From assembly GCA_964442455.1 (NCBI GenBank), contig CAYTZB010000001.1, positions 85,910-149,909 of the forward strand: DNA of 64,000 bases, read 5' to 3'. This document shows positions 3,047 through 58,239 of the stretch, one piece after another; the first letter of the stretch is position 1, and each line of letters starts with the position of its first letter. The DNA comes from an uncultured Gammaproteobacteria bacterium (GTDB lineage: Bacteria; Patescibacteriota; Microgenomatia; UBA8517; JACQJR01). The notes beneath the pieces were generated by a model. It made no database searches. It was not told the origin of the DNA and saw only the letters and a program-made list of their open reading frames with translations. Both the position numbers and the translations under genes were made by a program.

Positions 3047-3595
3047 ATGAGAGAGAAAACATACAAGGCTGAGGCGATTATCTTGGCCCGTCGTAATATA
3101 GGGGAGGCGGACAGGCTTCTTACGGTCTTTTCGAAGCATAATGGAAAGTTACGGATCATTGCAAAAGGAGTAAGGCGACCGACGAGTAGAAAACGAGGGT
3201 CTTTAGAGCTCTTTGCCTGCGTGCGACTTTTTCTGGTAAAAGGAAAAACGTTTGATATTGTGACCGAAGTAGAATTAAAAGAGAATTTTAATTCGTGGAG
3301 GGAGAGTTTGGTGCGTGTGGGTGTTGCCTACCATCTTGCAGAGGTGGTTAGTAAATTGACCAGAGAAGATCAAGAAAATAAAGTTGTTTATGGTATCCTC
3401 TTTAACGCTTTCTCACGATTGCACATAATAAATTATTGGCAATTGCATCATTTTATTTCGGAATTTAAGCGCCAGATTTTAGTCGAGCTTGGGTTTTTAG
3501 GAAGAAGTAAGGAGGAGAAAGAGCTTGATGACTATATCGAAGAGCTAACTCAGAGTAAACTCCGCACAAAGAGATTTTTACGCTCCCTTTCCTAA
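3047..3595 (+). CDS. recO: DNA repair protein RecO
   Basis: The N-terminal OB-fold signature AIILARRNIGEADRLLTVFSKHNGKLRIIAKGVRRPTSRKRGSLELF matches RecO. ATG 3047 is preferred over TTG 3035. Confidence 0.7.
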   Translation: MREKTYKAEAIILARRNIGEADRLLTVFSKHNGKLRIIAKGVRRPTSRKRGSLELFACVRLFLVKGKTFDIVTEVELKENFNSWRESLVRVGVAYHLAEVVSKLTREDQENKVVYGILFNAFSRLHIINYWQLHHFISEFKRQILVELGFLGRSKEEKELDDYIEELTQSKLRTKRFLRSLS

Positions 3596-3676
3596 GTTTG
3601 TCTAACTTCTATATGAGAACAGAATTTGTCATCCTTCTATTTTTTTAATTTCTTTTCTGATATCATAAACTCAGGT

Positions 3677-10733: not shown

Positions 10734-10818
10734 ATGTGTAGGCACCTTCGAGGTGTACGCAGGTATGGTACTATTACCACACTACAGAATATGGCAGTTG
10801 TTTAGTAATCTAATGATT
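10734..10818 (+). repeat. Copy A of a duplicated intergenic module (41-nt identical core 10743-10783, two hairpins, 23-codon micro-ORF)
   Basis: CACCTTCGAGGTGTACGCAGGTATGGTACTATTACCACACT is identical to 11741-11781. TATGG(C/T)AGTTGT and CTAATGAT are also shared downstream. Confidence 0.8.
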
Positions 10819-10842: not shown

Positions 10843-10870
10843 TTGACAAACGGATTACATTTGCTATAGT
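10843..10870 (+). promoter_or_regulatory. Promoter of the 272-aa orphan ORF
   Basis: TTGACA (10843-10848), a 16-nt spacer, then TG-n-TATAGT (10865-10870), followed by TAAGCTAAATTTATG. The architecture matches 11844-11871. Confidence 0.6.
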
Positions 10871-10882
10871 TAAGCTAAATTT

Positions 10883-11701
10883 ATGGCAGCTTCAATTGCT
10901 GAACGATTGGGGGTGACTTTAGAGCGTTTAGGTAAGGGGTTACAAGAAAGAGCAAGACCAAAAGAATCAACTTCTCCGGAACTTCTTCGTGATAAAGCAT
11001 TAGAATTATGGAGATTGACTGCTCCTGGACGCAAAGCTGATCCAAGCACCTCTGCTATTTCTTATTTCGTTTTCTCCTCTTCAGAAGGAGTTACTGCAGA
11101 CACTCAGGAAAAACAACTATTTGATGATTTATTAAAACCATATTGGCATGTCCATGATTATGATGGTTTTATGGTTATACTTTCAGTAAATCCGGATAAA
11201 CTTCCTAGTGTTTCATTTAAACTCTCCATTTTAGCTCCAGCTCCACCACAATTACCCTTTGAAGGTAAGTCTGCTGTTTTAGCATTTAGAGAATTTCCTC
11301 CAGATAGGAGTCGAAGGAGAGACTATCCTTATAATTTGCTTATTCAAGGAGAAAATAGAAATTTTTATTCTGATATATTGGATCAAGAAGTTACCGGTTT
11401 TGATCCTACTCAAGGATTACAATGGCAACAATTAGAAAAATACTCTGTTGATTATCAACCAAGAGGTGATATTGAATGGAGAAAAAAATTCACAAGCGAT
11501 GTTCTTGATCTCTTAATCGATATTATTAAAAAAATAGGATACGATGAAGTTGCTCAGGCTAGGATGGATCAATTTTGGAGGAGAAGTAGCATGATTCGGG
11601 GACGGTGGCTTGGTGAAGTTGAAAGTGAAAATCGGGAAGTAGATTATCGCCGACATTTTAATAATACTTCCTTGTCCCGCCGTAACAGGTTTAGTGTTTA
11701 A
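10883..11701 (+). CDS. Hypothetical protein (orphan, 272 aa)
   Basis: ATG-initiated ORF with its own promoter. A spot-counted 60-nt line (11161-11220) is about 30% G+C. No family recognised. Confidence 0.55.
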   Translation: MAASIAERLGVTLERLGKGLQERARPKESTSPELLRDKALELWRLTAPGRKADPSTSAISYFVFSSSEGVTADTQEKQLFDDLLKPYWHVHDYDGFMVILSVNPDKLPSVSFKLSILAPAPPQLPFEGKSAVLAFREFPPDRSRRRDYPYNLLIQGENRNFYSDILDQEVTGFDPTQGLQWQQLEKYSVDYQPRGDIEWRKKFTSDVLDLLIDIIKKIGYDEVAQARMDQFWRRSSMIRGRWLGEVESENREVDYRRHFNNTSLSRRNRFSV

Positions 11702-11728: not shown

Positions 11729-11816
11729 ATGGTGCAGACACACCTTCGAGGTGTACGCAGGTATGGTACTATTACCACACTCGGTGTATGGTAGTTGTAC
11801 AACGACTCTAATGATA
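11729..11816 (+). repeat. Copy B of the duplicated intergenic module (core 11741-11781, 21-codon micro-ORF preceded by GAGG)
   Basis: Same 41-nt core as copy A and the same downstream conserved blocks. Confidence 0.8.
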
Positions 11817-11843: not shown

Positions 11844-11871
11844 TTGACAATTGAATCCTCTCTGATATAGT
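11844..11871 (+). promoter_or_regulatory. Promoter of the 183-aa orphan ORF
   Basis: TTGACA (11844-11849), a 16-nt spacer, then TG-n-TATAGT (11866-11871), followed by TAAGCTGAATTTAT. Confidence 0.6.
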
Positions 11872-11893
11872 TAAGCTGAATTTATAAGCTATT

Positions 11894-12471: not shown

Positions 12472-13818
12472 ATGGATGTGGTGAAGACGGTATTTGGGAA
12501 GAGTCGTTGGTATGGGCCGATCAGAAACTTCCAACACTTCGTAGAAGCAGTCTTCGCAGTTATTAAAAATGGATATCCTGCGCGAGATTTAACGGTTATT
12601 GGTGTGACAGGAACAGACGGAAAGACAACAACGTCGCACATTATCTCATCAATTCTTCAAGAAGCAGGAATTAAAACTGCGCTTATCTCAAGCGTCGGTG
12701 CATTTATTGGTGATGAGGAGGTCGATACAGGCTTCCATGTAACGACTCCTGATCCAAAATTACTTCAACCACTTCTCGTAAAGATTAAAGAGAAAGGAAT
12801 AACCCATGTTGTTATAGAAGCAACATCTCATGGACTTGACCAACACAGACTTCTTGGATGTAATTTTAAAGTGGGAGTTTTGACAAATATTACTCATGAA
12901 CATTTAGATTACCATCAGACGTTTGAAAGATATAGAGACGCTAAAGTAAAGTTGTTTCGCGGTGTTAAAACTGCTGTTTTAAATAGAGACGATGACTCAT
13001 TTTCCTACATAAAATCAAAAACAAATCCTGGTACTCGTGTCATTGCTTACAGCGTAAAACAAAATGCTACGTTATGGGCAGATAAAGTTTCATTTAATTG
13101 GAAGGGTATGGAATTTCGTGTGAGAGAAGGAAGATCAAGTATTACGCTTACAACAAAACTTATTGGTGAATATAATGTTTCAAATATACTCGCTGCTGTT
13201 GGAGTCGCGCGCGGAATTGGAATTTCATGGGAAGCGATTAAGGAAGGGGTCGAAAGGTTTGGAGGAATTCCAGGAAGGATGGAAAGAGTTGATGAAGGAC
13301 AAACGTTTGCCACCTTTATTGATTTTGCACATACACCAGCGGCTCTTGAGAGCGTATTGACACTTCTTAAGAAATTAAAAACTCGAGATAGTAAACTCAT
13401 CGTTGTATTTGGAGCAGCAGGAGAACGGGATGTTAGCAAGAGGGCTTTGATGGGTGAAATTGCCGCCCGTTTGGCTGATTTTACCGTGTTGACTGCCGAG
13501 GATCCGCGTACCGAGAATCTTAACAGGATTATTGATGATATTACACGGGGGATAAGGCAAAATGCTAAAGTGTGGGATGGTGTTGTGGATTGGAGAAAAG
13601 AAGGAAGCTGGTGTATTCGAGTTCCTGAGCGGGGTGAAGCGATTGCATTTGCCGCTCAAAAGTTGGCGAAAGGTGGGGATATTTTGGTGATTTGCGGAAA
13701 AGGCCATGAGAAATCAATGGCATTTGATCACACCGAATACCCATGGTCAGACCAGGAAGCAGCTAGGGTAGCGCTCAAAGGGAAAATTAAAAGAGTAAAA
13801 AGAGGACAATTAACCTAA
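12472..13818 (+). CDS. murE: UDP-N-acetylmuramoyl-L-alanyl-D-glutamate--2,6-diaminopimelate (or L-lysine) ligase MurE
   Basis: Mur ligase P-loop VIGVTGTDGKTTT, central domain TNITHEHLDYH, and the C-terminal motif DFAHTP. Confidence 0.9.
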   Translation: MDVVKTVFGKSRWYGPIRNFQHFVEAVFAVIKNGYPARDLTVIGVTGTDGKTTTSHIISSILQEAGIKTALISSVGAFIGDEEVDTGFHVTTPDPKLLQPLLVKIKEKGITHVVIEATSHGLDQHRLLGCNFKVGVLTNITHEHLDYHQTFERYRDAKVKLFRGVKTAVLNRDDDSFSYIKSKTNPGTRVIAYSVKQNATLWADKVSFNWKGMEFRVREGRSSITLTTKLIGEYNVSNILAAVGVARGIGISWEAIKEGVERFGGIPGRMERVDEGQTFATFIDFAHTPAALESVLTLLKKLKTRDSKLIVVFGAAGERDVSKRALMGEIAARLADFTVLTAEDPRTENLNRIIDDITRGIRQNAKVWDGVVDWRKEGSWCIRVPERGEAIAFAAQKLAKGGDILVICGKGHEKSMAFDHTEYPWSDQEAARVALKGKIKRVKRGQLT

Positions 13819-13922
13819 TTGACCTAATTATTCTAATTTCTAAAGAATGTCTAATGACAATTTTAAGAATTTCATATTTGGGATTTCTTTAGGTTAATTA
13901 GAAATTAGTAATTAGAAATTTA
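13809..13922. repeat. Imperfect long palindrome built from phased CTAATT / AATTAG units (element E1)
   Basis: Left arm: TAACCTAATTGACCTAATTATTCTAATTTCTAAAGAA. Right arm: TTCTTTAGGTTAATTAGAAATTAGTAATTAGAAATT. It fills the murE-murC spacer and is homologous to 36451-36590. Confidence 0.7.
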
Positions 13923-13929
13923 AGTTTTT

Positions 13930-15354
13930 ATGGATATAAAAACTTTGAAACATATCCATTTCACCGGCATTAAGGGTGTCGGTATGACAGCGCTTGTCTT
14001 ATGTGCACAGGATTTGGGGATAAAGGTAACCGGTTCTGATGTTGCCGAGGTATTTGTGACGGATGAGACACTAGAAAAGCGTGGGATAAGATGGAATGTG
14101 GGATTTGGTGAAAAGAATTTAGACCCGAGGCCTGATTTAGTTATTACCACCGGTGCTCATGGTGGATTACGCAATCCTGAGGTAGTGGCAGCACAAAAAA
14201 TGGGTATCCGAGTGTTAACACACGCCCAGGCGCTGTATGAATTTACGAAGGGGAAAGAAGTTATCGCGGTATGCGGAGTAGGTGGTAAATCAACGACCTG
14301 CGCAATGATTGCAACGATTTTTGATGAAGCAGGACTTCATCCGTCGTTTGCTATAGGCGTGGGGGACATTCCATCACTTGGTGCTCCGGGAAGATACGAT
14401 AAGAAGGGGAACGTGTTTATTGTTGAGGCGGACGAATATGCAATTTCTCCGGGGGTTGATAACCGGCCGCGGTTTAGTCTACTTTCTCCGCGAGTCATTG
14501 TTGTTACTAATATTGAGCATGACCATCCTGACATTTATAAAACTTTAGAGGATACGAAAAGAGCGTTTCGAGAATTTTTTGAAAAATTACCCAGCGATGG
14601 TTTGCTTGTTGCAAATGGAAACAGTGAGAATGTCCGCACGATAACTAAAAATCTCAAAGTAAGAGTTATAATGTACGATATTGAAAATTTAGAACTTTCT
14701 ATTCCTGGTAAGTTTAATCAGGCAAATGCGACTGCAGCTTCTGCAGTTGCAAAATTTTATAACAGCATTCAAGAATACTCCGCAATTTATTGCGGAGATG
14801 AATTGAACGCTGATATGTCATCCTCCTTTAGAGGGAAACCCAGCTCGTTAGAGCGGGGAGGATGTCATAAAATCCCAGAAGAAATAATTAAAAGAGGACT
14901 CCAAAATTTTAAAGGTGTTAGACGTCGGTTTGAAAAAATGGGTGAAATAAATGGAGTATTGTTTTATGATGATTACGCTCATACCCCAAATGAAATAAGG
15001 GCTACACTAGGAGCCGCTCGTGAATGGTTTAATAACCAACGCATAGTTGCAGTTTTTCAACCTCATACCTATTCTCGAACAAAAGCGTTACTTAGCGAAT
15101 TCGCGAAGAGTTTTAGTGATTCGGACATAGTTGGAGTTATGGATATTTATGCTTCCGCTCGGGAGAATGATACTTTAGGTATGTCGGGAGAGCTACTTGC
15201 AAAAGAAATTTCTCGATACCACAAAAATGTTGCCTATACGGGTAATCATGAACGAACTATTGAGTGGATTAAAAAAAATAGTAAAAGCGGTGATATAGTT
15301 TTGACTTTAGGGGCAGGCGATATTTTTTTATTGCACAGGATAATTAATTCATAA
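13930..15354 (+). CDS. murC: UDP-N-acetylmuramate--L-alanine ligase MurC (carries an in-frame ~38-codon repeat-element insertion)
   Basis: HFTGIKGVGMTAL, GVGGKSTT, NIEHDHPD, FKGVRRRFE and YDDYAHTP motifs are present. The segment NSIQEYSAIYCGDELNADMSSSFRGKPSSLERGGCHK is encoded by the repeat at 14757-14870. Confidence 0.9.
   Translation: MDIKTLKHIHFTGIKGVGMTALVLCAQDLGIKVTGSDVAEVFVTDETLEKRGIRWNVGFGEKNLDPRPDLVITTGAHGGLRNPEVVAAQKMGIRVLTHAQALYEFTKGKEVIAVCGVGGKSTTCAMIATIFDEAGLHPSFAIGVGDIPSLGAPGRYDKKGNVFIVEADEYAISPGVDNRPRFSLLSPRVIVVTNIEHDHPDIYKTLEDTKRAFREFFEKLPSDGLLVANGNSENVRTITKNLKVRVIMYDIENLELSIPGKFNQANATAASAVAKFYNSIQEYSAIYCGDELNADMSSSFRGKPSSLERGGCHKIPEEIIKRGLQNFKGVRRRFEKMGEINGVLFYDDYAHTPNEIRATLGAAREWFNNQRIVAVFQPHTYSRTKALLSEFAKSFSDSDIVGVMDIYASARENDTLGMSGELLAKEISRYHKNVAYTGNHERTIEWIKKNSKSGDIVLTLGAGDIFLLHRIINS
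14757..14870 (+). mobile_element. MITE-like hairpin element, long form, copy 1 (inside murC, in frame)
   Basis: 114 bp, homologous to 58021-58133 and to 25471-25538. Termini TTATAACA...TGTCATAA form inverted repeats. There are two internal 8-bp hairpins. Confidence 0.7.
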
Positions 15355-15361
15355 TATCGAT

Positions 15362-15379
15362 ATATTCATATATGAATAT
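15362..15379. promoter_or_regulatory. 18-bp perfect palindrome ATATTCATATATGAATAT overlapping the murB start codon
   Basis: The 16-bp core TATTCATATATGAATA recurs identically at 52856-52871. Confidence 0.4.
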
Positions 15380-16313
15380 CCGCATCACAGAAAACATTTT
15401 ATTCTCTTCCCTTACGACTCTCAGAATTGGTGGGCCCATAAAGTATTTTGCACCTGCAACTACAGAAGAGGAACTATTTCATTTAATTGAAATGGCAAAA
15501 GGGAAGAGCTTGCATTACTTGATTATAGGTGGCGGAAGTAATCTACTCGTATCAGGCGATGGATTTGATGGATTAGTTATTCAAAATCTTATTCAATCAA
15601 TTGAAAAGAAAGACGATGTTTTGGAGGTTGGTGCTGGTACAGATTTGCAAGCCCTTGTATGGTATGCAAATAAAAGTGGAATTTCTGGTTTTGAAAAACT
15701 GGCGGGTATTCCGGGAAGCGTGGGGGGGGCGGTGTATGGGAATGCAGGAGCATATGGACAGGCTATTTCTGACAATGTTTTGTGGATTGAAGTAGGAGAA
15801 CCAAAAGATGGAACAACGAAAAAACTAAAAAGTGAAGAATGTGGATTTGGTTATAGAAAGAGCAAGTTTAAAGAAACAAAAGATTTGATACTACGGATGG
15901 GATTTTCAATTACACCTGGTGACAGTAAGGAGCTTCTCAAAACTTCTCAAGAAATTGTGAAGATGCGAATGCAAAAATATCCTCCGGGTATTGCCTGTCC
16001 GGGAAGCTTTTTTAAGAATGTAGAAGTAGATAAACTTGATAAAGGCATTCTTTCCCGCATTCCAAAAGATAAAATTATGTTTGGGAAAATTCCCGCAGGT
16101 TGGTTGCTTGAAGAAGTTGGGGCAAAGGGAGCAAGAAAAAATGGTGTAGAGATTGCACCGTGGCATGGAAATTTATTTGTGAACCAAGGTGGGGGAAGAG
16201 CAGAAGACTTTTTATATTTAGCAAAAGAATATAGGCAAAAGGTTAAAGAACGGTTTGGTATCGAACTTGAGCCAGAAGTACAGTTGGTTGGATTTAAAGA
16301 GAATATGTTTTAA
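15372..16313 (+). CDS. murB: UDP-N-acetylenolpyruvoylglucosamine reductase MurB
   Basis: FAD-binding pattern LTTLRIGGP...LIIGGGSNLLV and a C-terminal MurB domain. Confidence 0.9.
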   Translation: MNIRITENILFSSLTTLRIGGPIKYFAPATTEEELFHLIEMAKGKSLHYLIIGGGSNLLVSGDGFDGLVIQNLIQSIEKKDDVLEVGAGTDLQALVWYANKSGISGFEKLAGIPGSVGGAVYGNAGAYGQAISDNVLWIEVGEPKDGTTKKLKSEECGFGYRKSKFKETKDLILRMGFSITPGDSKELLKTSQEIVKMRMQKYPPGIACPGSFFKNVEVDKLDKGILSRIPKDKIMFGKIPAGWLLEEVGAKGARKNGVEIAPWHGNLFVNQGGGRAEDFLYLAKEYRQKVKERFGIELEPEVQLVGFKENMF

Positions 16314-25470: not shown

Positions 25471-25538
25471 TTATAACAGCATTCAAGAAAACTCCCGACT
25501 TTTAGTCGGGTGATGAATTGAACGCTGATATGTCATAA
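25471..25538 (+). mobile_element. MITE-like hairpin element, short form, copy 2 (abuts the ftsA start codon)
   Basis: 68 bp, TTATAACAGC...GATATGTCATAA. It equals the long form minus the segment between two ATGTCAT direct repeats. Confidence 0.7.
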
Positions 25539-25541
25539 GTT

Positions 25542-26810
25542 ATGGCTAAAGGAAAAGTTATTGCCGGAATAGATATTGGTTCTTCCAAAGTTGCGACCGT
25601 CATAGGCAGTGCAAATCCAGAGGAAGAAGTACTACAAGTTTTGGGAGTGGCGTCTGTTCCTGCTCCGCCTGATGGAATTAAGAAGGGGCAAATTGTTGAT
25701 ATTGAGAAAGCCTCTGGGGCGGTTGTAGCTTCGGTTGAGAAAGCAGAACGGATGGCGGGGTTTGCACTCGATAACGTCGTCGTTGTTATTAATGGTGGAC
25801 ATATTCAGGGTCAAAACTCTCATGGGGTTGTTGCAATATCCTCCCCGGAGGGAGAGATAGAAGGAAGTGATGTTGAGCGGGTCATTGATGCCGCGCGTGC
25901 GATATCTCTTCCAGCTGGTCGCGAAGTTATTCATGTGCTCCCTTGTGAGTTTATTGTAGATGGGGAGAAAGGGATAAAGGATCCGGTGGGAATGAGTGGG
26001 GTGCGGCTTGAGGTAGAAGCGCATATTGTAACCGCGTCAACAACTGCCATTCGCAATTTAACCAAGTGTGTAAGTGAGGTGGGAGCGAGAATTTCCGGTG
26101 TGGTGTTCTCGGGGTTTGCCGCCGCCGCATCGGTGCTTTCTGATACCGAACGGGAACTAGGAGTCGTGTTAATTGACCTTGGAGCGGGGACGACCTCAAT
26201 TGCCGTTTTCACCGATGGCGCACTGGTTCACTCGCGAGTGCTTCCTATTGGTTCAAAAAATATTACCAATGATTTAGCTATAGGACTGCGCACCTCGCTT
26301 GAGAGTGCTGAGAAGATTAAAATTTCTCTCTCCGCAGCAAGTAAAAAAGACAAAGAGGAAGACGAGATAGACGTGTCGGGGTTGGGTGTTGATGGAGGGG
26401 AACGGACTGTGTCAAAAAGGACCCTTTCAGAGGGGATTATACGGCCTAGACTCAACGAAATTTGGAGTATGGTAGGGATGGAGCTCAAGGCCACGGGTCT
26501 TGGAGGGAGAACCCCGGCAGGAGTGGTGATTACCGGAGGGGGAGCGTTAACGGTAGGAGCGGTTGAGTCAGCACGGCGAATCTTAGCCCTTCCTGTTCGG
26601 GTGGGAATTCCCACCGGTATTTCGGGATTGGTTGACGATGTCTCAACGCCCGCATTTGCCGCAACGGTTGGGGCGGTTGCGTGGGCAGCACAAAACGTTG
26701 CCCCTCCTTCGGGTTTTCGTATTGGTCAGTTCACCCGTCCCTTCGAAAGCCTCCCTGTAAAAGGAGTGGTAGGCAAGGTGGTTGAGGTTATAAAAGGATT
26801 GCTGCCATAA
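25542..26810 (+). CDS. ftsA: Cell division protein FtsA
   Basis: Actin-like ATPase motifs GIDIGSSKV and LIDLGAGTTSIAVF, with the characteristic C-terminal region. Confidence 0.9.
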   Translation: MAKGKVIAGIDIGSSKVATVIGSANPEEEVLQVLGVASVPAPPDGIKKGQIVDIEKASGAVVASVEKAERMAGFALDNVVVVINGGHIQGQNSHGVVAISSPEGEIEGSDVERVIDAARAISLPAGREVIHVLPCEFIVDGEKGIKDPVGMSGVRLEVEAHIVTASTTAIRNLTKCVSEVGARISGVVFSGFAAAASVLSDTERELGVVLIDLGAGTTSIAVFTDGALVHSRVLPIGSKNITNDLAIGLRTSLESAEKIKISLSAASKKDKEEDEIDVSGLGVDGGERTVSKRTLSEGIIRPRLNEIWSMVGMELKATGLGGRTPAGVVITGGGALTVGAVESARRILALPVRVGIPTGISGLVDDVSTPAFAATVGAVAWAAQNVAPPSGFRIGQFTRPFESLPVKGVVGKVVEVIKGLLP

Positions 26811-36436: not shown

Positions 36437-36450
36437 AGGCCACAAGTGAA

Positions 36451-36590
36451 ATTAACCTAATTAACCTAATTGCTCTAATTGATCTAAATTTTGAAGATTT
36501 GTAGTTTAAAAATTGGGATTTATTTAGAAATTAGAATAATTAGAAATAAGCAGAGCTTGTTTCTCGCAAGCTCGAAATTAGAAATTTTTA
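36451..36590. repeat. Imperfect long palindrome of CTAATT / AATTAG phased units (element E4, homolog of E1) plus an internal 7-bp hairpin
   Basis: Left arm: ATTAACCTAATTAACCTAATTGCTCTAATTGATCTAAATT. Right arm: TTTAGAAATTAGAATAATTAGAAAT...GAAATTAGAAATT. The hairpin is GAGCTTG-TTTCTCG-CAAGCTC. Confidence 0.65.
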
Positions 36591-36592
36591 AA

Positions 36593-37720
36593 ATGGCTCT
36601 TGTTAAACCAGATACCACGCGGTTGGCAAAAATTCGAGTAATTGGGGTTGGTGGCGGTGGGGGGAACGCAATTAACTCCATGATCTCCCAAGATAAGATT
36701 TCCGGAGTTGAGTTCATTGCCGTTAATACAGATGCACAAGTCCTTCTCTCAAACCTCGCGTCCACAAAAGTTCAAGTTGGTGAAAAATTGACGCGCGGGT
36801 TGGGTGTTGGGGGAAATCATGAGCTTGGGAAACAAGCAGCGGAGGAATCAAGAGAAAAAATTAAAGAACTGCTTCTTGACTCTGATATGGTATTTATTAC
36901 TGCAGGTATGGGTGGAGGGACTGGAACTGGGGCTGCACCGATTATTGCCGAGGTCGCGCGTGAGGTGGGGGCGTTGACGATTGCTATTGTTACCAAACCT
37001 TTTGCCTTTGAAGGTGCACGGCGCGCAGTAGTAGGAGAAGAGGGAATTGAAGCGCTTAAAGGAAAGGTTGATACGCTCATTATCATTCCCAATCAGCGGT
37101 TGATGGATGTCATTGACCGGAAGGTGACGCTACTTGATGCGTTCCGCCTGGCCGACTCGGTGCTCTCGCAAGGTGTACAAGGAATTTCTGAAATTATCAC
37201 CCAACCGGGACTTATTAACGTTGACTTTGCGGATGTAAAAGCAATTATGACCCAAGCAGGCTCAGCGCTTCTTGGCATTGGTACGGGAGTTGGTGAAGCG
37301 CGGGCACAAATGGCAGCACGGGCAGCAATTTCCTCTCCTCTTCTTGACTTATCAATCGAGGGTGCAAAGGGAGTGTTGTTTAATATCTCGGGTGGCCCGG
37401 ACTTGACTATGGCGGAGGTTGATGAGGCAGCGCGAATTATCGCCGAGCATTCCGATGCAGACGCAAACATTATTTTTGGTGCATCAATTGACCAACGGTT
37501 GTCCGATCAAGTACGTATTACAGTTATTGCGACCGGTTTTGATGAGGCGCGGGCACGACTTGCGCAAATAACCCAAACCGCAGTCAAACCTCAACCAACC
37601 CTTGAGTCGACAGAAGAGACTCGTGGGGAAAACGAGGAGGAAGAAAAGGCAGAAGAACCCAAGGATGATGAGTTTGGAGAACGCTTCGAAATACCAGCGT
37701 TTCTAAGACAGGGCCGCTAG
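36593..37720 (+). CDS. ftsZ: Cell division GTPase FtsZ
   Basis: GVGGGGGNAIN, tubulin signature GGGTGTGAAPIIA, NTDAQ, and the C-terminal conserved peptide FEIPAFLRQGR. ATG 36593 is preferred; the ORF-track TTG 36491 extension runs through the palindromic repeat. Confidence 0.92.
   Translation: MALVKPDTTRLAKIRVIGVGGGGGNAINSMISQDKISGVEFIAVNTDAQVLLSNLASTKVQVGEKLTRGLGVGGNHELGKQAAEESREKIKELLLDSDMVFITAGMGGGTGTGAAPIIAEVAREVGALTIAIVTKPFAFEGARRAVVGEEGIEALKGKVDTLIIIPNQRLMDVIDRKVTLLDAFRLADSVLSQGVQGISEIITQPGLINVDFADVKAIMTQAGSALLGIGTGVGEARAQMAARAAISSPLLDLSIEGAKGVLFNISGGPDLTMAEVDEAARIIAEHSDADANIIFGASIDQRLSDQVRITVIATGFDEARARLAQITQTAVKPQPTLESTEETRGENEEEEKAEEPKDDEFGERFEIPAFLRQGR
37669..37707 (+). repeat. Direct repeat copy 1 (last 39 nt of the ftsZ body before its final 13 nt)
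   Basis: TGAGTTTGGAGAACGCTTCGAAATACCAGCGTTTCTAAG is identical to 40512-40550. Confidence 0.9.
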
Positions 37721-37781: not shown

Positions 37782-40514
37782 ATGATTGCAACAACCGAAA
37801 GAGCTATACCAATAGGATTGACTGGCGATATCTCAAAGGATGGAATTCTTTCTCCAGGAACACAAATAGAGCTTGATCGTCTCCAAACTAATGCGGCTGA
37901 TGCTTGCATGGAATATCTAGATAGAATGGCACCAGATGCACCATTTCCTCTAGTTTTTATGGCAACTGGCGTCGGTAAGGGAAAAATTATTCACGAACTG
38001 ATTAAAAGGCAAAAAGCTCGAAAACAAGACTCGAAGATTTTGTTAGTTACAGGTACAAAAATTGTTTTAGTTGATCAGACTGATCAAGCTTTAACTGCTT
38101 ATCAGCAAGAACAAAATGATTTTGATATGGATGAGGATCTTGAACTGGACCAGATGGATTTTGAAAAAGAAGCGTTTGGAGAATACACATTTGATAAGTA
38201 TGGTAATCCGGATGTGGATGTTCAACTGGCAACAATTCAAAGAATTCAAAGGCAGCATAAAGAGGGGAAACTTAATGCGAATGATTTCGATCTACTAATA
38301 GTAGATGAAGTACATAATGTAGGAACCCAGAATAGGTTTAATGCAATTGATAACTTTCAAAGGGTTGTTGGTTTTACTGCTACTCCATATCGCTACACTG
38401 GCCCAATGAAAACACCACAAAGTTATGGATTTGAAATAATTACTTCGCTGTCCCTTCCCGAAGCACAAGAAAGGAAAATTCTTCCGCCTCTTTATGCACT
38501 GCAGATTAATACATCAGAATTACTAAAAGACGAACAAATACCTACCACGAGAACTGGAAAGATCGATTATTCGAAACTCGAGAAAGTTCTCAAGGCACAT
38601 CCGGAATTAAGGGAATTCATTGCGAATAGAGTTGCACCAATTATCAATTTTGAAGGGAGAAGTTATAAAACTGTTGTAACTGTTAACTTTGTGTGGGAAG
38701 CCCTGGAACTTGCCTGGTTATTTAGGGATAAAGGAATTAAGGTTGGTTTAGCAGTTAATCAATATGCCGCAAAGAATATTGATACCAAAGAAATACCAGC
38801 ATTGGACACGATTAGGAGATATAAACTGCCGGAAGGCGATCCAGAAAGCCTCCAGGTTTTAATTTCTCCTTATGTTATTTCGGAAGGTTTTGATGCTCCG
38901 GCAACAGAGATTTTAGTTTGGGCGTCTCCAACTGATTCATATCTGCGATACACGCAATATACTGGACGGCTGGCCAGAAGACATTTTGGTAAAGCTTATG
39001 GACTAGTTGTTGATTGTTTATACCAAACAAGCCAGTATGGTTGGACCTACAACTTTGCAATGTGGATGAAGGGATATGTACAAGAGTTAGAACCTGGACT
39101 TTTATATCTTGGCCCGATGTCAGAAATCAAAGATGTTGAAGTACTTAGACGCATACACGAGATTTCGGATAATATCCATATTCGTGAATTACAAAGGGAA
39201 GGAATACTACCTATTCAAGAAAACGACTTGCCGCTTTCACAAAATTGGATTCGACCTCTTTTCCAGGGAGATTGGCTTAGATTAACTTCTTTAATCGATG
39301 AGATTAAAGAAGAGTATAGAATCACTGGTGAGGAGGTATTTAATCAACTATTCACAACCAGGCTTAGTGGTAATCAACTTGTGCTCGTATGTACAAATAG
39401 AGATATTTTTATTCAACGGCTAATAGACAAAGGTGCTAAACCAAAGGTTGAAAAACCACGAGAGGGAGAGATTCCTTTGACTCAGATTAATCTACCCAAA
39501 CTCTTTGTTGGTAATTTTGAAGATACTTTGAGACCTATGCTTAATTCAATAATGGCGCGTATTAAAAATGAAGATCCAGAGGAATACCAGCGACTCTTTG
39601 CCAAACGAATGCAGGGTAGGGAAATCTATGTTTGCACAAATAAGGATAGACTTATTCAACTTATGGTTGAAGCTGGCGCAAAACTCAGGCCAGGGACTAA
39701 GGTAGCAAAAGAGAAAATGCAAACTAGCGATTTTGCTCTTACAGCAGATAATCTCGGAGAAACTTTTATTACTGGAAGAACAAAGAAGATAAGAGAAGTA
39801 ATAAGGAAAATAAAAGAAAGTTTGCCAGAAGGGGACTCTTTATTTACTTTTAGAGAATACAAGTATGCCGATGTTGAGGTAGTAACTGATTTCGATAGAT
39901 TTGTGCAATTAATGCTACAAACTGGAGTCAAACTCAGACCAAAAAATTTTATTCCAATTCAACCAAATGATATACAATTAAGTAGGGATTTATTAAAAAC
40001 ATTTTTAGGGCAATGGCGTGAAATTTCTACAACAGCGCAGCGAGCTAAAGAAAGACTTGAAAGACAATTCCCCGATGACTGTGATACTCTTTTTGTAGTT
40101 AGGACAACGAGAGTCCAAAATAAACCTCTTTGGATTGATGTATGTACAGACAGGTCTAAATTTATAAAAGCAATGGTAGAGGAAGGAGCTCGATTGAGAG
40201 ATCAGGCAGATATTAACCTTCTACCTATTCAAGAAAATGATATTGTTTTGAGCTTTGAATCTTTCTATTCGATTTCTACTACAAACTGGAGTAAATTAAA
40301 AGTTGTAATTAGACGAATTAAAGATAGGATAAAAGAGGAAATGCCAGAGGAATTCGAAAAGTTATTTGTAAAAAGGAAAAACCGTCGGGGGAAAAGTGAG
40401 GTCTGTACAGATAGAGGTTTATTTATTAAGTGGCTTGAAGAAGAGGGTGTTAAGCTAAGGCAAATTCCGCTAGTTGTGCGACATAGAAGTAGTAACTCTA
40501 ATCGTAACTCTTGA
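37782..40514 (+). CDS. SF2 helicase (ResIII/DEAD-like N-terminal ATPase + helicase-C) with five tandem ~84-aa C-terminal repeats
   Basis: Motif I FMATGVGKGK, motif II LLIVDEVHNV, motif III GFTATP, motif VI QYTGRLARR. TGgTATACT lies 6 nt before ATG 37782. The repeats span nt ~39204-40465. Confidence 0.85.
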   Translation: MIATTERAIPIGLTGDISKDGILSPGTQIELDRLQTNAADACMEYLDRMAPDAPFPLVFMATGVGKGKIIHELIKRQKARKQDSKILLVTGTKIVLVDQTDQALTAYQQEQNDFDMDEDLELDQMDFEKEAFGEYTFDKYGNPDVDVQLATIQRIQRQHKEGKLNANDFDLLIVDEVHNVGTQNRFNAIDNFQRVVGFTATPYRYTGPMKTPQSYGFEIITSLSLPEAQERKILPPLYALQINTSELLKDEQIPTTRTGKIDYSKLEKVLKAHPELREFIANRVAPIINFEGRSYKTVVTVNFVWEALELAWLFRDKGIKVGLAVNQYAAKNIDTKEIPALDTIRRYKLPEGDPESLQVLISPYVISEGFDAPATEILVWASPTDSYLRYTQYTGRLARRHFGKAYGLVVDCLYQTSQYGWTYNFAMWMKGYVQELEPGLLYLGPMSEIKDVEVLRRIHEISDNIHIRELQREGILPIQENDLPLSQNWIRPLFQGDWLRLTSLIDEIKEEYRITGEEVFNQLFTTRLSGNQLVLVCTNRDIFIQRLIDKGAKPKVEKPREGEIPLTQINLPKLFVGNFEDTLRPMLNSIMARIKNEDPEEYQRLFAKRMQGREIYVCTNKDRLIQLMVEAGAKLRPGTKVAKEKMQTSDFALTADNLGETFITGRTKKIREVIRKIKESLPEGDSLFTFREYKYADVEVVTDFDRFVQLMLQTGVKLRPKNFIPIQPNDIQLSRDLLKTFLGQWREISTTAQRAKERLERQFPDDCDTLFVVRTTRVQNKPLWIDVCTDRSKFIKAMVEEGARLRDQADINLLPIQENDIVLSFESFYSISTTNWSKLKVVIRRIKDRIKEEMPEEFEKLFVKRKNRRGKSEVCTDRGLFIKWLEEEGVKLRQIPLVVRHRSSNSNRNS

Positions 40515-40563
40515 GTTTGGAGAACGCTTCGAAATACCAGCGTTTCTAAGGCAAGGAAGATGA
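40512..40563 (+). pseudogene. Orphan duplicate of the ftsZ 3' end (encodes EFGERFEIPAFLRQGR-stop)
   Basis: 39 nt are identical to 37669-37707. The next 13 nt differ from the ftsZ tail at 7 positions, yet both tails translate to RQGR-stop. It is not in frame with the helicase ORF. Confidence 0.8.
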
Positions 40564-58007: not shown

Positions 58008-58020
58008 AGCAGTGAGTTTA

Positions 58021-58133
58021 TTATAACAGCATTCAAGAAAACTCCCGACTTTCAGTCGGGAGATGAATTGAACGCTGATATGTCATCCTCCTTTAGAGGA
58101 AACCCCGCTTTTCAAAGCGGGGAGGATGTCATA
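58021..58133 (+). mobile_element. MITE-like hairpin element, long form, copy 3 (intergenic)
   Basis: TTATAACAGC...GGATGTCATA, with hairpins CTCCCGAC-TTTCA-GTCGGGAG and CCCCGCTT-TTCA-AAGCGGGG. Confidence 0.75.
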
Positions 58134-58149
58134 GTATAATTCTTTTGAC

Positions 58150-58239
58150 ATGAAATTTGCGGTTGGGAGCGATGAGAAGACTAAGATAACGGACTTTGTG
58201 GTCGATTATCTTAAAACACGTACAAAAACTCTATATTGA
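58150..58239 (+). pseudogene. Possible N-terminal remnant of an RpiB/LacAB-family sugar-phosphate isomerase (29 codons, then stop)
   Basis: MKFAVGSDEKTKITDFVVDYLKTR resembles the RpiB N-terminus (MK.A.GSDh.g..lk..i..yL). It is truncated by TGA at 58237-58239, where the next promoter begins. Confidence 0.35.

Follow-up and report, generated by a model that had tools for sequence, protein, structure and literature searches.

A structured and very probably mobile 108-nt element family of Microgenomates genomes, with compensated hairpins and insertion after TTAT

The intergenic repeat at positions 58025-58132 (+ strand) of the window, as the whole 64,000-nt stretch of DNA analysed here is called, is a full 108-nt copy of a short element that is almost certainly both structured and mobile. 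The element constitutes a new family that is specific to CPR/Microgenomates and is undescribed in the literature searched, coverage of which was incomplete. After the removal of duplicates, 105 distinct insertions were found in at least 21 species-level Microgenomates genomes and in metagenomes. The reading favoured here, with a probability of roughly 0.55, is that of a non-autonomous, PATE-like element of the IS200/IS605 type with RPE-like in-frame behaviour; a role as guide RNA is a possibility that can be held only tentatively. The structure plausibly matters as ssDNA for transposition, as RNA, or as both. An earlier note, made from the letters of this DNA, had compared the intergenic copy with a second one inside murC and concluded that their hairpins were kept by compensatory base changes. 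This pattern extends from those two copies to about 100.

Copies in the window and across genomes

In total, the window holds three copies, every one on the + strand. The intergenic copy lies between a 61-aa minus-strand ORF and typA/bipA, directly 3′ of a TTAT target motif (TAM-like; 58021-58024, +); it runs from AACAGC to GGAGGATGTCAT, which ends in GTCAT, and is the best match to the covariance model (137.8 bits). The stretch reads TTAT, then AACAGCATTCAAGAAAAC, the hairpin CTCCCGAC TTTC AGTCGGGAG, then ATGAATTGAACGCTGATATGTCAT and CCTCCTTTAGAGGAAA, followed by the hairpin CCCCGCTT TTCA AAGCGGGG and by AGGATGTCAT, with AG beyond the right junction. A second full 108-nt copy (14761-14868, +) is located inside murC (host ORF 13930-15354), behind TTAT at 14757-14760. 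The third is a half copy of 62 nt (25475-25536, +; 71 bits), preceded by TTAT at 25471-25474, which consists of Domain I only, stops at the first ATGTCAT and ends 5 nt upstream of the ftsA-like ATG at 25542. An invariant 25-mer and an invariant 15-mer each occur three times in the window, always on the + strand (0 and about 0.3 occurrences expected, respectively), and both are identical in all copies.

With the covariance model, for which 31 copies were used, 48 sense copies are found in the first set of sequences and 69 more in metagenomes. An exact core 22-mer occurs at 41 loci in 21 species-representative MAGs, all of them CPR/Microgenomates, with Woesebacteria, Shapirobacteria, Blackburnbacteria and 'Microgenomatus' as carrier lineages; two bins that carry the 22-mer and are labelled Gammaproteobacteria are probably mislabelled. 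Among the carriers is the 744-kb contig DYGS01000001. No element copy was seen in the viral contigs scanned. A metagenome scan with the left-end 17-mer returned 120 loci, about half of which are chance matches, while the others are full, truncated or hairpin-expanded copies. None of these loci had an ORF of interest downstream, and no longer parent element sharing the left end appeared among them. Of the 105 insertions, 73 have a net length divisible by three, and in 50 it is 108 nt. MurC proteins of the carrier lineages are only ~50-65% identical, whereas the element hardly differs in its unpaired parts.

Fold and covariation

The intergenic copy is organised in two domains, both on the + strand. 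In Domain I (58028-58076), helix 1 (58028-58036 with 58068-58076; AGC.UUCAA/UUGAA.GCU, with a conserved A.C mismatch) encloses hairpin P1 (58042-58049 with 58055-58062) across an invariant 5x5 internal loop (GAAAA at 58037-58041 and AUGAA at 58063-58067). In Domain II (58079-58133), helix 3 (58079-58089 with 58123-58133; UAUGUCAUCCU/AGGAUGUCAUA, with one U.U mismatch) encloses a three-way junction with the small 3-bp hairpin P2a (58090-58092 with 58097-58099) and with hairpin P2b (58103-58110 with 58115-58122), which has 8 bp and a UUCA loop. The TCAT end motif at 58129-58132 is encoded by the element (TEM-like) and resembles the TTAT target. The fold of the intergenic copy has a free energy of -51.9 kcal/mol as RNA (z -7.95 against shuffles) and of -31 kcal/mol as ssDNA (z -7.84).

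P1 and P2b are the two hairpins of the earlier note, whose description of them is accurate. For P1, CTCCCGAC/GTCGGGAG in the intergenic copy corresponds to CTCCGCAA/TTGCGGAG in murC, with three pairs swapped and complementarity intact; for P2b, CCCCGCTT/AAGCGGGG corresponds to CCCAGCTC/GAGCGGGG, with one compensated pair and one A.G mismatch. By contrast, the conserved flanking blocks, which had been taken as single-stranded, do pair, forming helices 1 and 3. RNAalifold, run on an unfitted MAFFT alignment, recovers helix 1, P1 and helix 3, and two-sided changes in helices 1 and 3 are found in the divergent copies L034:3365-3480, L036:2157-2348 and L011:5658-5768, helix 1 being compensated in the first two. 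Since the conserved blocks are themselves paired, the element consists of two long composite hairpins.

Covariation was measured on a model-fitted alignment of 93 distinct copies. In this set, 96.6% of stem positions are paired, and two-sided changes occur in 28 of 37 pairs (390 cells). Two-sided changes affect all eight pairs of P1, seven of the eight of P2b, eight of the ten of helix 3, and P2a as well; three to five different Watson-Crick identities are seen per pair at all P1 and most P2b pairs. None of 500 shuffles matches any of the pairing or covariation measures, and sliding the partner register by 1-3 columns lowers pairing to 37-44%. The result is the same with 48 copies. In general, the stems vary freely without losing their pairing; loops, junctions and outer helices, by contrast, hardly differ from one species to the next. 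Additional hairpins are tolerated at fixed points (L029, L036, L039, L069 and L160), and short variants (L005, L009, L030 and others) have a plain loop in place of the three-way junction. A K-turn or box C/D reading of GAUGA...CUGA was rejected, as its geometry misfits the helices supported by covariation.

Mispairs are distributed asymmetrically, with 64 G.U against 27 A.C (p ~1e-4 with relatedness ignored). This excess indicates that the top strand is the folded species, as RNA or ssDNA; G.T wobbles are tolerated in ssDNA too, and hence the asymmetry cannot separate the two.

Insertion sites and copies within genes

Filled and empty sites were compared for five insertions. The murC copy of the window has an empty counterpart in the syntenic relative L042, with flanks that are 89% identical and a clean 108-nt difference, and differences of 108 nt also separate L150 (in uppP) from L145 (flanks 99% identical), L064 from L130 (91%) and L061 from L114 (~99.9%). 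In the ftsQ-ftsA spacer, the half copy of the window is absent from L042, the flanks being divergent. Two of the five pairs are polymorphisms between near-identical strains and, consequently, the element is active, now or recently, in bacteria (CPR) that are uncultivated and have tiny, gene-dense genomes.

The junctions define the target. For instance, an empty site with GATATTTAT followed by AAATC becomes GATATTTAT, AACAGC...GTCAT and AAATC when filled, and a second junction, CAAATAATTTAT followed by GAATAC, behaves in the same way. TTAT is already present in the empty sites; thus, in TTATAACA, which had been proposed as the element end, TTAT is the target motif, and the element begins with AACAGC. 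Of the 105 insertions, 95 have TTAT as their left flank, with conservation dropping sharply at -5, and 86 end in ATGTCAT on the right, beyond which A-A/G is weakly preferred; in five, the right end has the variant TTAT. The family therefore yields a precise rule, namely insertion directly after TTAT. The position of the junction is ambiguous by as much as 2 nt, since AT closes both the target and the element. Apart from this AT, no duplicated bases are seen in the five filled/empty pairs, which rules out a TA duplication but formally leaves room for a 2-bp duplication of AT. The two ends of the element are not inverted repeats of each other. With neither terminal inverted repeats nor a target duplication, the element is not a classical MITE, the label used in the earlier note. 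In a single copy with the left flank TTTACC (L034:3365-3480), the 3′ end is TTTTACC, with a matching change in the opposite strand of helix 3.

Copies share the orientation of neighbouring genes in 61 of 95 cases (p 0.007), as do 62% of coding bases, an effect of moderate size. The bias is in keeping with the IS200/IS605 reading, but its size does not decide whether the lagging strand is targeted.

Insertion into genes is tolerated, as the earlier note had suggested. Among ORFs that reach at least 30 codons on either side of the insertion, 12 copies are in sense and 6 in antisense orientation, and all 18 have a length that is a multiple of three and contain no stop codon. Since they are constrained in this way, intragenic copies are read, judging by their reading frames, as being translated into a surface loop of ~36 residues rather than spliced out. 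The stop-free forward phase reported for the intergenic copy, ITAFKKTPDFQSGDELNADMSSSFRGNPAFQSGEDVI, is correct in translation, and a candidate peptide of a translated insert is DELNADMSSSFR. Two sub-families, set apart by a -1/+1 indel pair, are open in different sense phases, with the peptides ITAFKKT...DELNADMSSS...GEDVI (phase 2) and NSIQE...GDELNADMSSS...ERGGCH (phase 0); on the antisense strand, a single phase is free of stops, (N/Y)DILPALKSGVSLQRRMTYQRSIH...LECCY. A Pfam search with five versions of the encoded peptide returned no domain.

Hosts confirmed by Pfam include MurC, a P-type ATPase, ArgRS, Fmt, a DRG/Obg-type GTPase and UppP/BacA, which has two copies, as well as a GT4 glycosyltransferase, a RimK-type ATP-grasp protein, an EEP nuclease/phosphatase and a PMT_2 glycosyltransferase. 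In the window, the murC copy is read through in frame and adds 36 residues, NSIQEYSAIYCGDELNADMSSSFRGKPSSLERGGCH. Among 12 aligned MurC proteins, this insert is present solely in the window protein and absent from its 11 homologues. In an otherwise confident AlphaFold model of this MurC (pTM 0.84), the insert appears as a low-confidence loop (pLDDT 29-37; residues 282-313 below 50) that joins two confident helices.

A relic of a TnpB C-terminus was considered because GDELNAD can be set beside D.D.NAA.NI, the TnpB C-terminal motif, and neither Pfam nor the TnpB motif searches lent it support. A self-splicing intron or self-cleaving ribozyme was likewise rejected, given that intragenic copies are constrained in frame and stop codons, and that no such Rfam match was found at E <=10. 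Entry into murC, uppP, argS, fmt, P-type ATPase and GTPase genes without killing shows how selfish DNA can persist. Loops of 36 residues added to core proteins would be a natural source of protein innovation, and in-frame insertions of this kind are a trap for gene callers and aligners.

Mechanism, rival explanations and known systems

The earlier note had suggested a link to IS200/IS605 or IS630 transposases. The former provides the best-supported mechanism, while the latter is rejected (see below). IS200/IS605 elements, as a rule, insert 3′ of a TAM, bear a TEM similar to it at their right end and cause no duplication; they are excised without a scar, carry hairpins on the top strand and use alternative TEMs flexibly (Meers et al., PMC10055086). 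The present element would be mobilised in trans, as ssDNA, by an HUH/Y1 'peel-and-paste' transposase of the IS200/IS605 type. In such a scheme, TTAT would be the transposon-adjacent motif and TCAT the transposon-encoded motif, and Domains I and II would act as left- and right-end recognition structures, a requirement that would keep the stems paired. The transcript would probably be like the right-end (omega/sot/HgcC-type) RNA of tnpB elements, and it may act in trans. If the internal ATGTCAT served as an alternative end, this would explain both the half copy and the serial 'hairpin + ATGTCAT' modules, although the half copy could as simply have arisen by slippage between the two 7-nt repeats.

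A cognate transposase with matching ends, which the earlier note had proposed to look for elsewhere in the genome, was not detected in the ~1.1 Mb around the copies. Regular expressions for TnpB RuvC-III, the C-terminal zinc finger and Y1 HUH...Y found no Y1 transposase or TnpB in these flanks, and all-against-all clustering of the neighbouring ORFs showed no recurrent partner gene, the sole noteworthy recurrent cluster being that of PBP1A-like housekeeping proteins. Given that ~1.1 Mb is about the size of one CPR genome, this is a weak negative, and a gene present in a single copy per genome is easily missed. If the partner enzyme were found, it would be part of a compact system from an unexplored lineage.

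Some features of the element sit at odds with the IS200/IS605 reading. In IS608, the end motif lies downstream of the hairpin; here, TCAT is inside a stem. Stem sequences also differ between copies of one genome, which is unusual if a transposase reads the sequence of the hairpin. In addition, short variants without P2b occur in several genomes.

Compatible with the IS200/IS605 reading, and not exclusive of it, is the possibility that RNA function is the main constraint, the element being a standalone mobilised omega-RNA or HgcC-type scaffold with a trans-encoded TnpB-like or other RNA-binding protein and with the 3′ flank as guide. This account is tentative. Loops, junctions and the 5x5 loop are invariant in at least 21 species while the stems turn over, which is the pattern of a protein-bound structured RNA, and the account is also in keeping with extra hairpins being tolerated at fixed points (L069, L160, L029 and L036), with G.U being commoner than A.C and with sub-threshold matches to HgcC and sot0042 on the sense strand. 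Moreover, the 3′ end of the scaffold falls on the boundary of the element, as it does in omega RNAs (PMC10055086, PMC10691335). However, no TnpB-like ORF was found near any copy, the sense strand has no evident internal promoter, and of the intragenic copies, one third run antisense to their host gene. A bolder version, which must be considered rather doubtful, would make the family, rather than a transposon relic in decay, a living, phylum-wide set of standalone mobile guide-RNA-like modules that are homologous to HgcC and whose fold is held by a conserved trans-acting protein. If this were true, the partner would be a TnpB-like nuclease or an as yet unrecognised CPR protein, the sequence would have been shaped to be harmless (36 codons, three of six frames open and a -10 box regenerated), and HgcC would gain an origin and a function.

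The last of these features concerns the effects of insertion on promoters. TTAT followed by A is the complement of T followed by ATAA, and thus the element can land in the TATAAT box of a leftward gene. Insertion there rebuilds TGT-TATAAT, an extended -10 by consensus match only. At the intergenic copy, the leftward 61-aa ORF begins 12 nt past the hexamer. At the right end, TAGTATAAT adjoins the element, as the earlier note had stated in proposing a -10 for an rpiB-like ORF; the ORF itself, of 29 aa (58150-58239), has no Pfam match, so that the rpiB-like label is provisional. A promoter scan gives TTCAAA-18-TATAAT in the rightward direction, and both hairpins are terminator-like on the antisense strand, again as consensus matches only.

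Such signals would be expected if the copies were retained by the host as a regulatory repeat, REP/BIME- or Correia-like, that serves nearby genes as a promoter, a terminator or a stabiliser of mRNA. On the opposite strand, the left junction is always TGTTATAA(T/A), an extended -10, and in 13 of the 105 insertions a leftward ORF begins 6-8 nt past that hexamer, at leaderless spacing; the rightward TATAAT at 58135-58140 has a -35-like TTCAAA in the P2b loop, and on the antisense strand both hairpins, followed by U-rich tails, score as terminators. Nevertheless, the regeneration of the promoter is automatic whenever the element inserts between ATTAT and A, the complement of TATAAT, and the U-tract is degraded (UGUUC) in ~40% of copies. 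The copies are, furthermore, polymorphic between near-identical strains and present inside coding regions, which fits a selfish element with ends that minimise damage. Overall, host regulation is an unlikely reason for the persistence of the copies.

Also to be considered is whether compensation is mechanical and arises without structural selection, through templated (quasi-palindrome) correction within hairpins and gene conversion among copies. The earlier note took covariation as showing selection. That pairing is maintained stands; covariation in a multi-copy DNA palindrome is, however, no proof of selection by itself. Templated correction in DNA palindromes can make paired changes in one step, and the independent compensatory events are fewer than the cell counts suggest. 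The contigs L061 and L114, ~99.9% identical over 4.8 kb, show the same replacement of the P1 tip (CAATTCATTG vs GTGTACAC) at both copies that they share, with one extra 108-nt copy in just one of the two contigs, and the same hairpin variants recur at P1 and P2b of different copies. The same replacement at two loci is not stepwise mutation, and gene conversion or segment import must contribute. Yet, such processes cannot explain why unpaired segments are invariant between species, why 64 G.U persist against 27 A.C, or how compensation arose in helices 1 and 3, with arms that lie 30-45 nt apart and enclose other hairpins. Owing to these three observations, a structural requirement remains the main explanation, and a purely mechanical origin is improbable. 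Finally, a classical MITE derived from a DDE transposon (IS630/Tc1, TA target) with the terminal inverted repeats TTATAACA/TGTCATAA is very improbable, for although TTATAACA agrees with the reverse complement of TGTCATAA in 7 of 8 bases, this match consists of the TTAT target and partly conserved flank bases while the ends differ inside the element, the filled sites are longer than the empty ones by exactly 108 nt where a TA duplication needs another empty site, and no DDE transposase was found nearby.

With regard to its behaviour in genes, the IS200/IS605-type element favoured here is comparable to RPEs, which are short palindromic repeats that are often in frame in conserved protein genes and are translated without destroying the fold (PMC10969869). 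The likeness, short palindromic repeats in small-genome bacteria with in-frame translated insertions, is one of shared behaviour. RPEs belong to a different phylum, and no transposition mechanism is given for them in the review (PMC10969869). In contrast, the present element has the TTAT target, an exact 108-nt unit and an HgcC-like fold, and is open in two sense phases and one antisense phase.

REPs resemble the element as hairpin repeats that are long maintained and thought to move as ssDNA, and they are thought to be mobilised through a single-copy trans-acting HUH enzyme (RAYT). REPs, for their part, are extragenic, have a length of ~20-40 nt, form inverted doublets and flank a RAYT gene, features that the present element does not show. 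REP/RAYT systems are mentioned in PMC4615843.

The likeness to PATEs and standalone omega RNAs goes further into the structure of the ends. PATEs often carry omega RNAs that act in trans (Meers et al., PMC10055086), and standalone mobilised omega RNAs exist (Altae-Tran et al., PMC10691335). As in these, the element has no inverted termini (TIR), no target duplication (TSD) and no protein gene, inserts 3′ of a 4-nt motif (TAM) with a similar, related motif (TEM) at its own 3′ end, and bears subterminal stem-loops on one strand together with an 8-bp/UUCA RE-like tetraloop. It differs in that no element encoding TnpA or TnpB was seen to share its ends, its end motif is buried in a stem, its hairpin sequences vary freely, its 5′ end pairs with its own middle and in-frame intragenic copies are frequent. 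Candidate DNA-guide positions vary without correlation to TAM or TEM, of which there are few variants.

Among known RNAs, nothing reached the Rfam gathering score in the window except tRNAs, or at 18 loci except tRNAs, rRNAs and group I introns. The top sense-strand match in three copies is HgcC (RF00062), at 36, 21 and 29 bits, which lie below its gathering score of 50 and do not establish membership. Weak matches (E 0.02-0.04), also below the gathering score, were found to the 3′ end of sot0042, which is transcribed from the 3′ end of tnpB in a haloarchaeal IS1341. The 3′-end RNAs of IS1341 tnpB, HgcC and a PATE-derived RNA have in common the 'RE-like tetraloop', a stem of 8 bp capped by a UUCA loop (Gomes-Filho et al., PMC4615843), and P2b has precisely this form. 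The element also shows the feature order of HgcC, namely a hairpin, GAUGA..UGAAC, a small hairpin, a CCCCGC-UUxA-GCGGGG hairpin and AGGA.GUCA. HgcC, a high-GC ncRNA whose function is still described as unresolved (PMC5732400), differs in coming from hyperthermophilic archaea, and its model has an additional 37-nt segment and no 5′ strand of helix 1. Kinship to the archaeal HgcC RNAs is thus sub-threshold but reproducible; the family links these RNAs to ends of the IS200/IS605 type and offers a clean and deep covariation data set for a two-domain nucleic-acid fold.

Hairpin exchange and copy number in near-identical strains

The contigs L061 and L114, which come from a pair of near-identical strains, share about 99.9% identity across 4.8 kb and have two element copies in common (L061:2155-2268 and 3238-3351; L114:2897-3008 and 1816-1927). 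At both of these shared copies, the distal part of hairpin P1 is swapped in an identical manner (CAATTCATTG versus GTGTACAC). Since the same swap is found at two loci, the sequences point away from point mutation and towards a concerted process such as gene conversion. Copy number also varies between near-identical strains. For instance, a single uppP/BacA gene in L150 contains two in-frame copies of the element (L150:3313-3426 and 3562-3675), while L145, its near-identical counterpart, has only one copy in this gene.

L061 and L114 differ by a second presence/absence polymorphism as well, this one of another kind than the element. It consists of a 222-nt in-frame segment (L061:713-934) that encodes a LAGLIDADG-like motif (LLGILYTDGCLS...) and is absent from the otherwise identical L114.

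Promoter- and terminator-like signals

In most copies, the left junction carries an extended -10, TGTTATAA(T/A), on the opposite strand; examples are found in the window at 58012-58030 (minus strand) and at loci L006, L009, L021, L033, L034, and L095. A leftward ORF starts 6-8 nt beyond this hexamer, a leaderless spacing, in 13 of the 105 insertions. Apparently, the element inserts into TATAAT boxes and restores them. Read on the antisense strand, the two hairpins each run into a U-rich tail and have terminator-like scores (window 58042-58062 and 58103-58122, minus strand). On the plus strand, the loop of hairpin P2b provides a -35-like TTCAAA, which is located 18 nt upstream of a flanking TATAAT (window 58111-58140).

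The murC-murB region and repeats in the window

In the closest relative, MurC and MurB are fused into a single 764-aa protein (L042:10001-12295). The window counterpart (13930-16313) consists of murC (13930-15354) followed by a separate 313-aa ORF (15372-16313) in the place expected for murB. Short periodic repeats of the AATTAACCTAATT type are present upstream of murC (13808-13846) and upstream of the ORF at 36491 (36450-36497).

The window also contains a perfect 41-nt direct repeat, with copies 1 kb apart (10743-10783 and 11741-11781), each followed after 100 nt by a promoter-like TTGACA...TATAGT repeat (10843-10884 and 11844-11885); neither is related to the element. In addition, two consecutive large ORFs each carry at their 3′ end one copy of a 45-nt repeat (37669-37713 and 40512-40556; 96% identity between the copies) that contains a hairpin (GAACGCTTCGAAATACCAGCGTTTC).

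Genomic neighbors and host labels

Some element copies have tRNA genes only 9-13 nt away, at the left end in L007 and L011 and at the right end in L008. At L025 (5645-7282) and L008 (5330-5533), group I introns in or adjoining 23S rRNA are located no more than a few kb from element copies.

Typical copies of this Microgenomates element are also present in MAGs labelled "uncultured Gammaproteobacteria", namely CAYIKF01 (L015, L028, and L041) and CAZBTH01 (L021). Consequently, these two MAGs are probably misclassified CPR bins.
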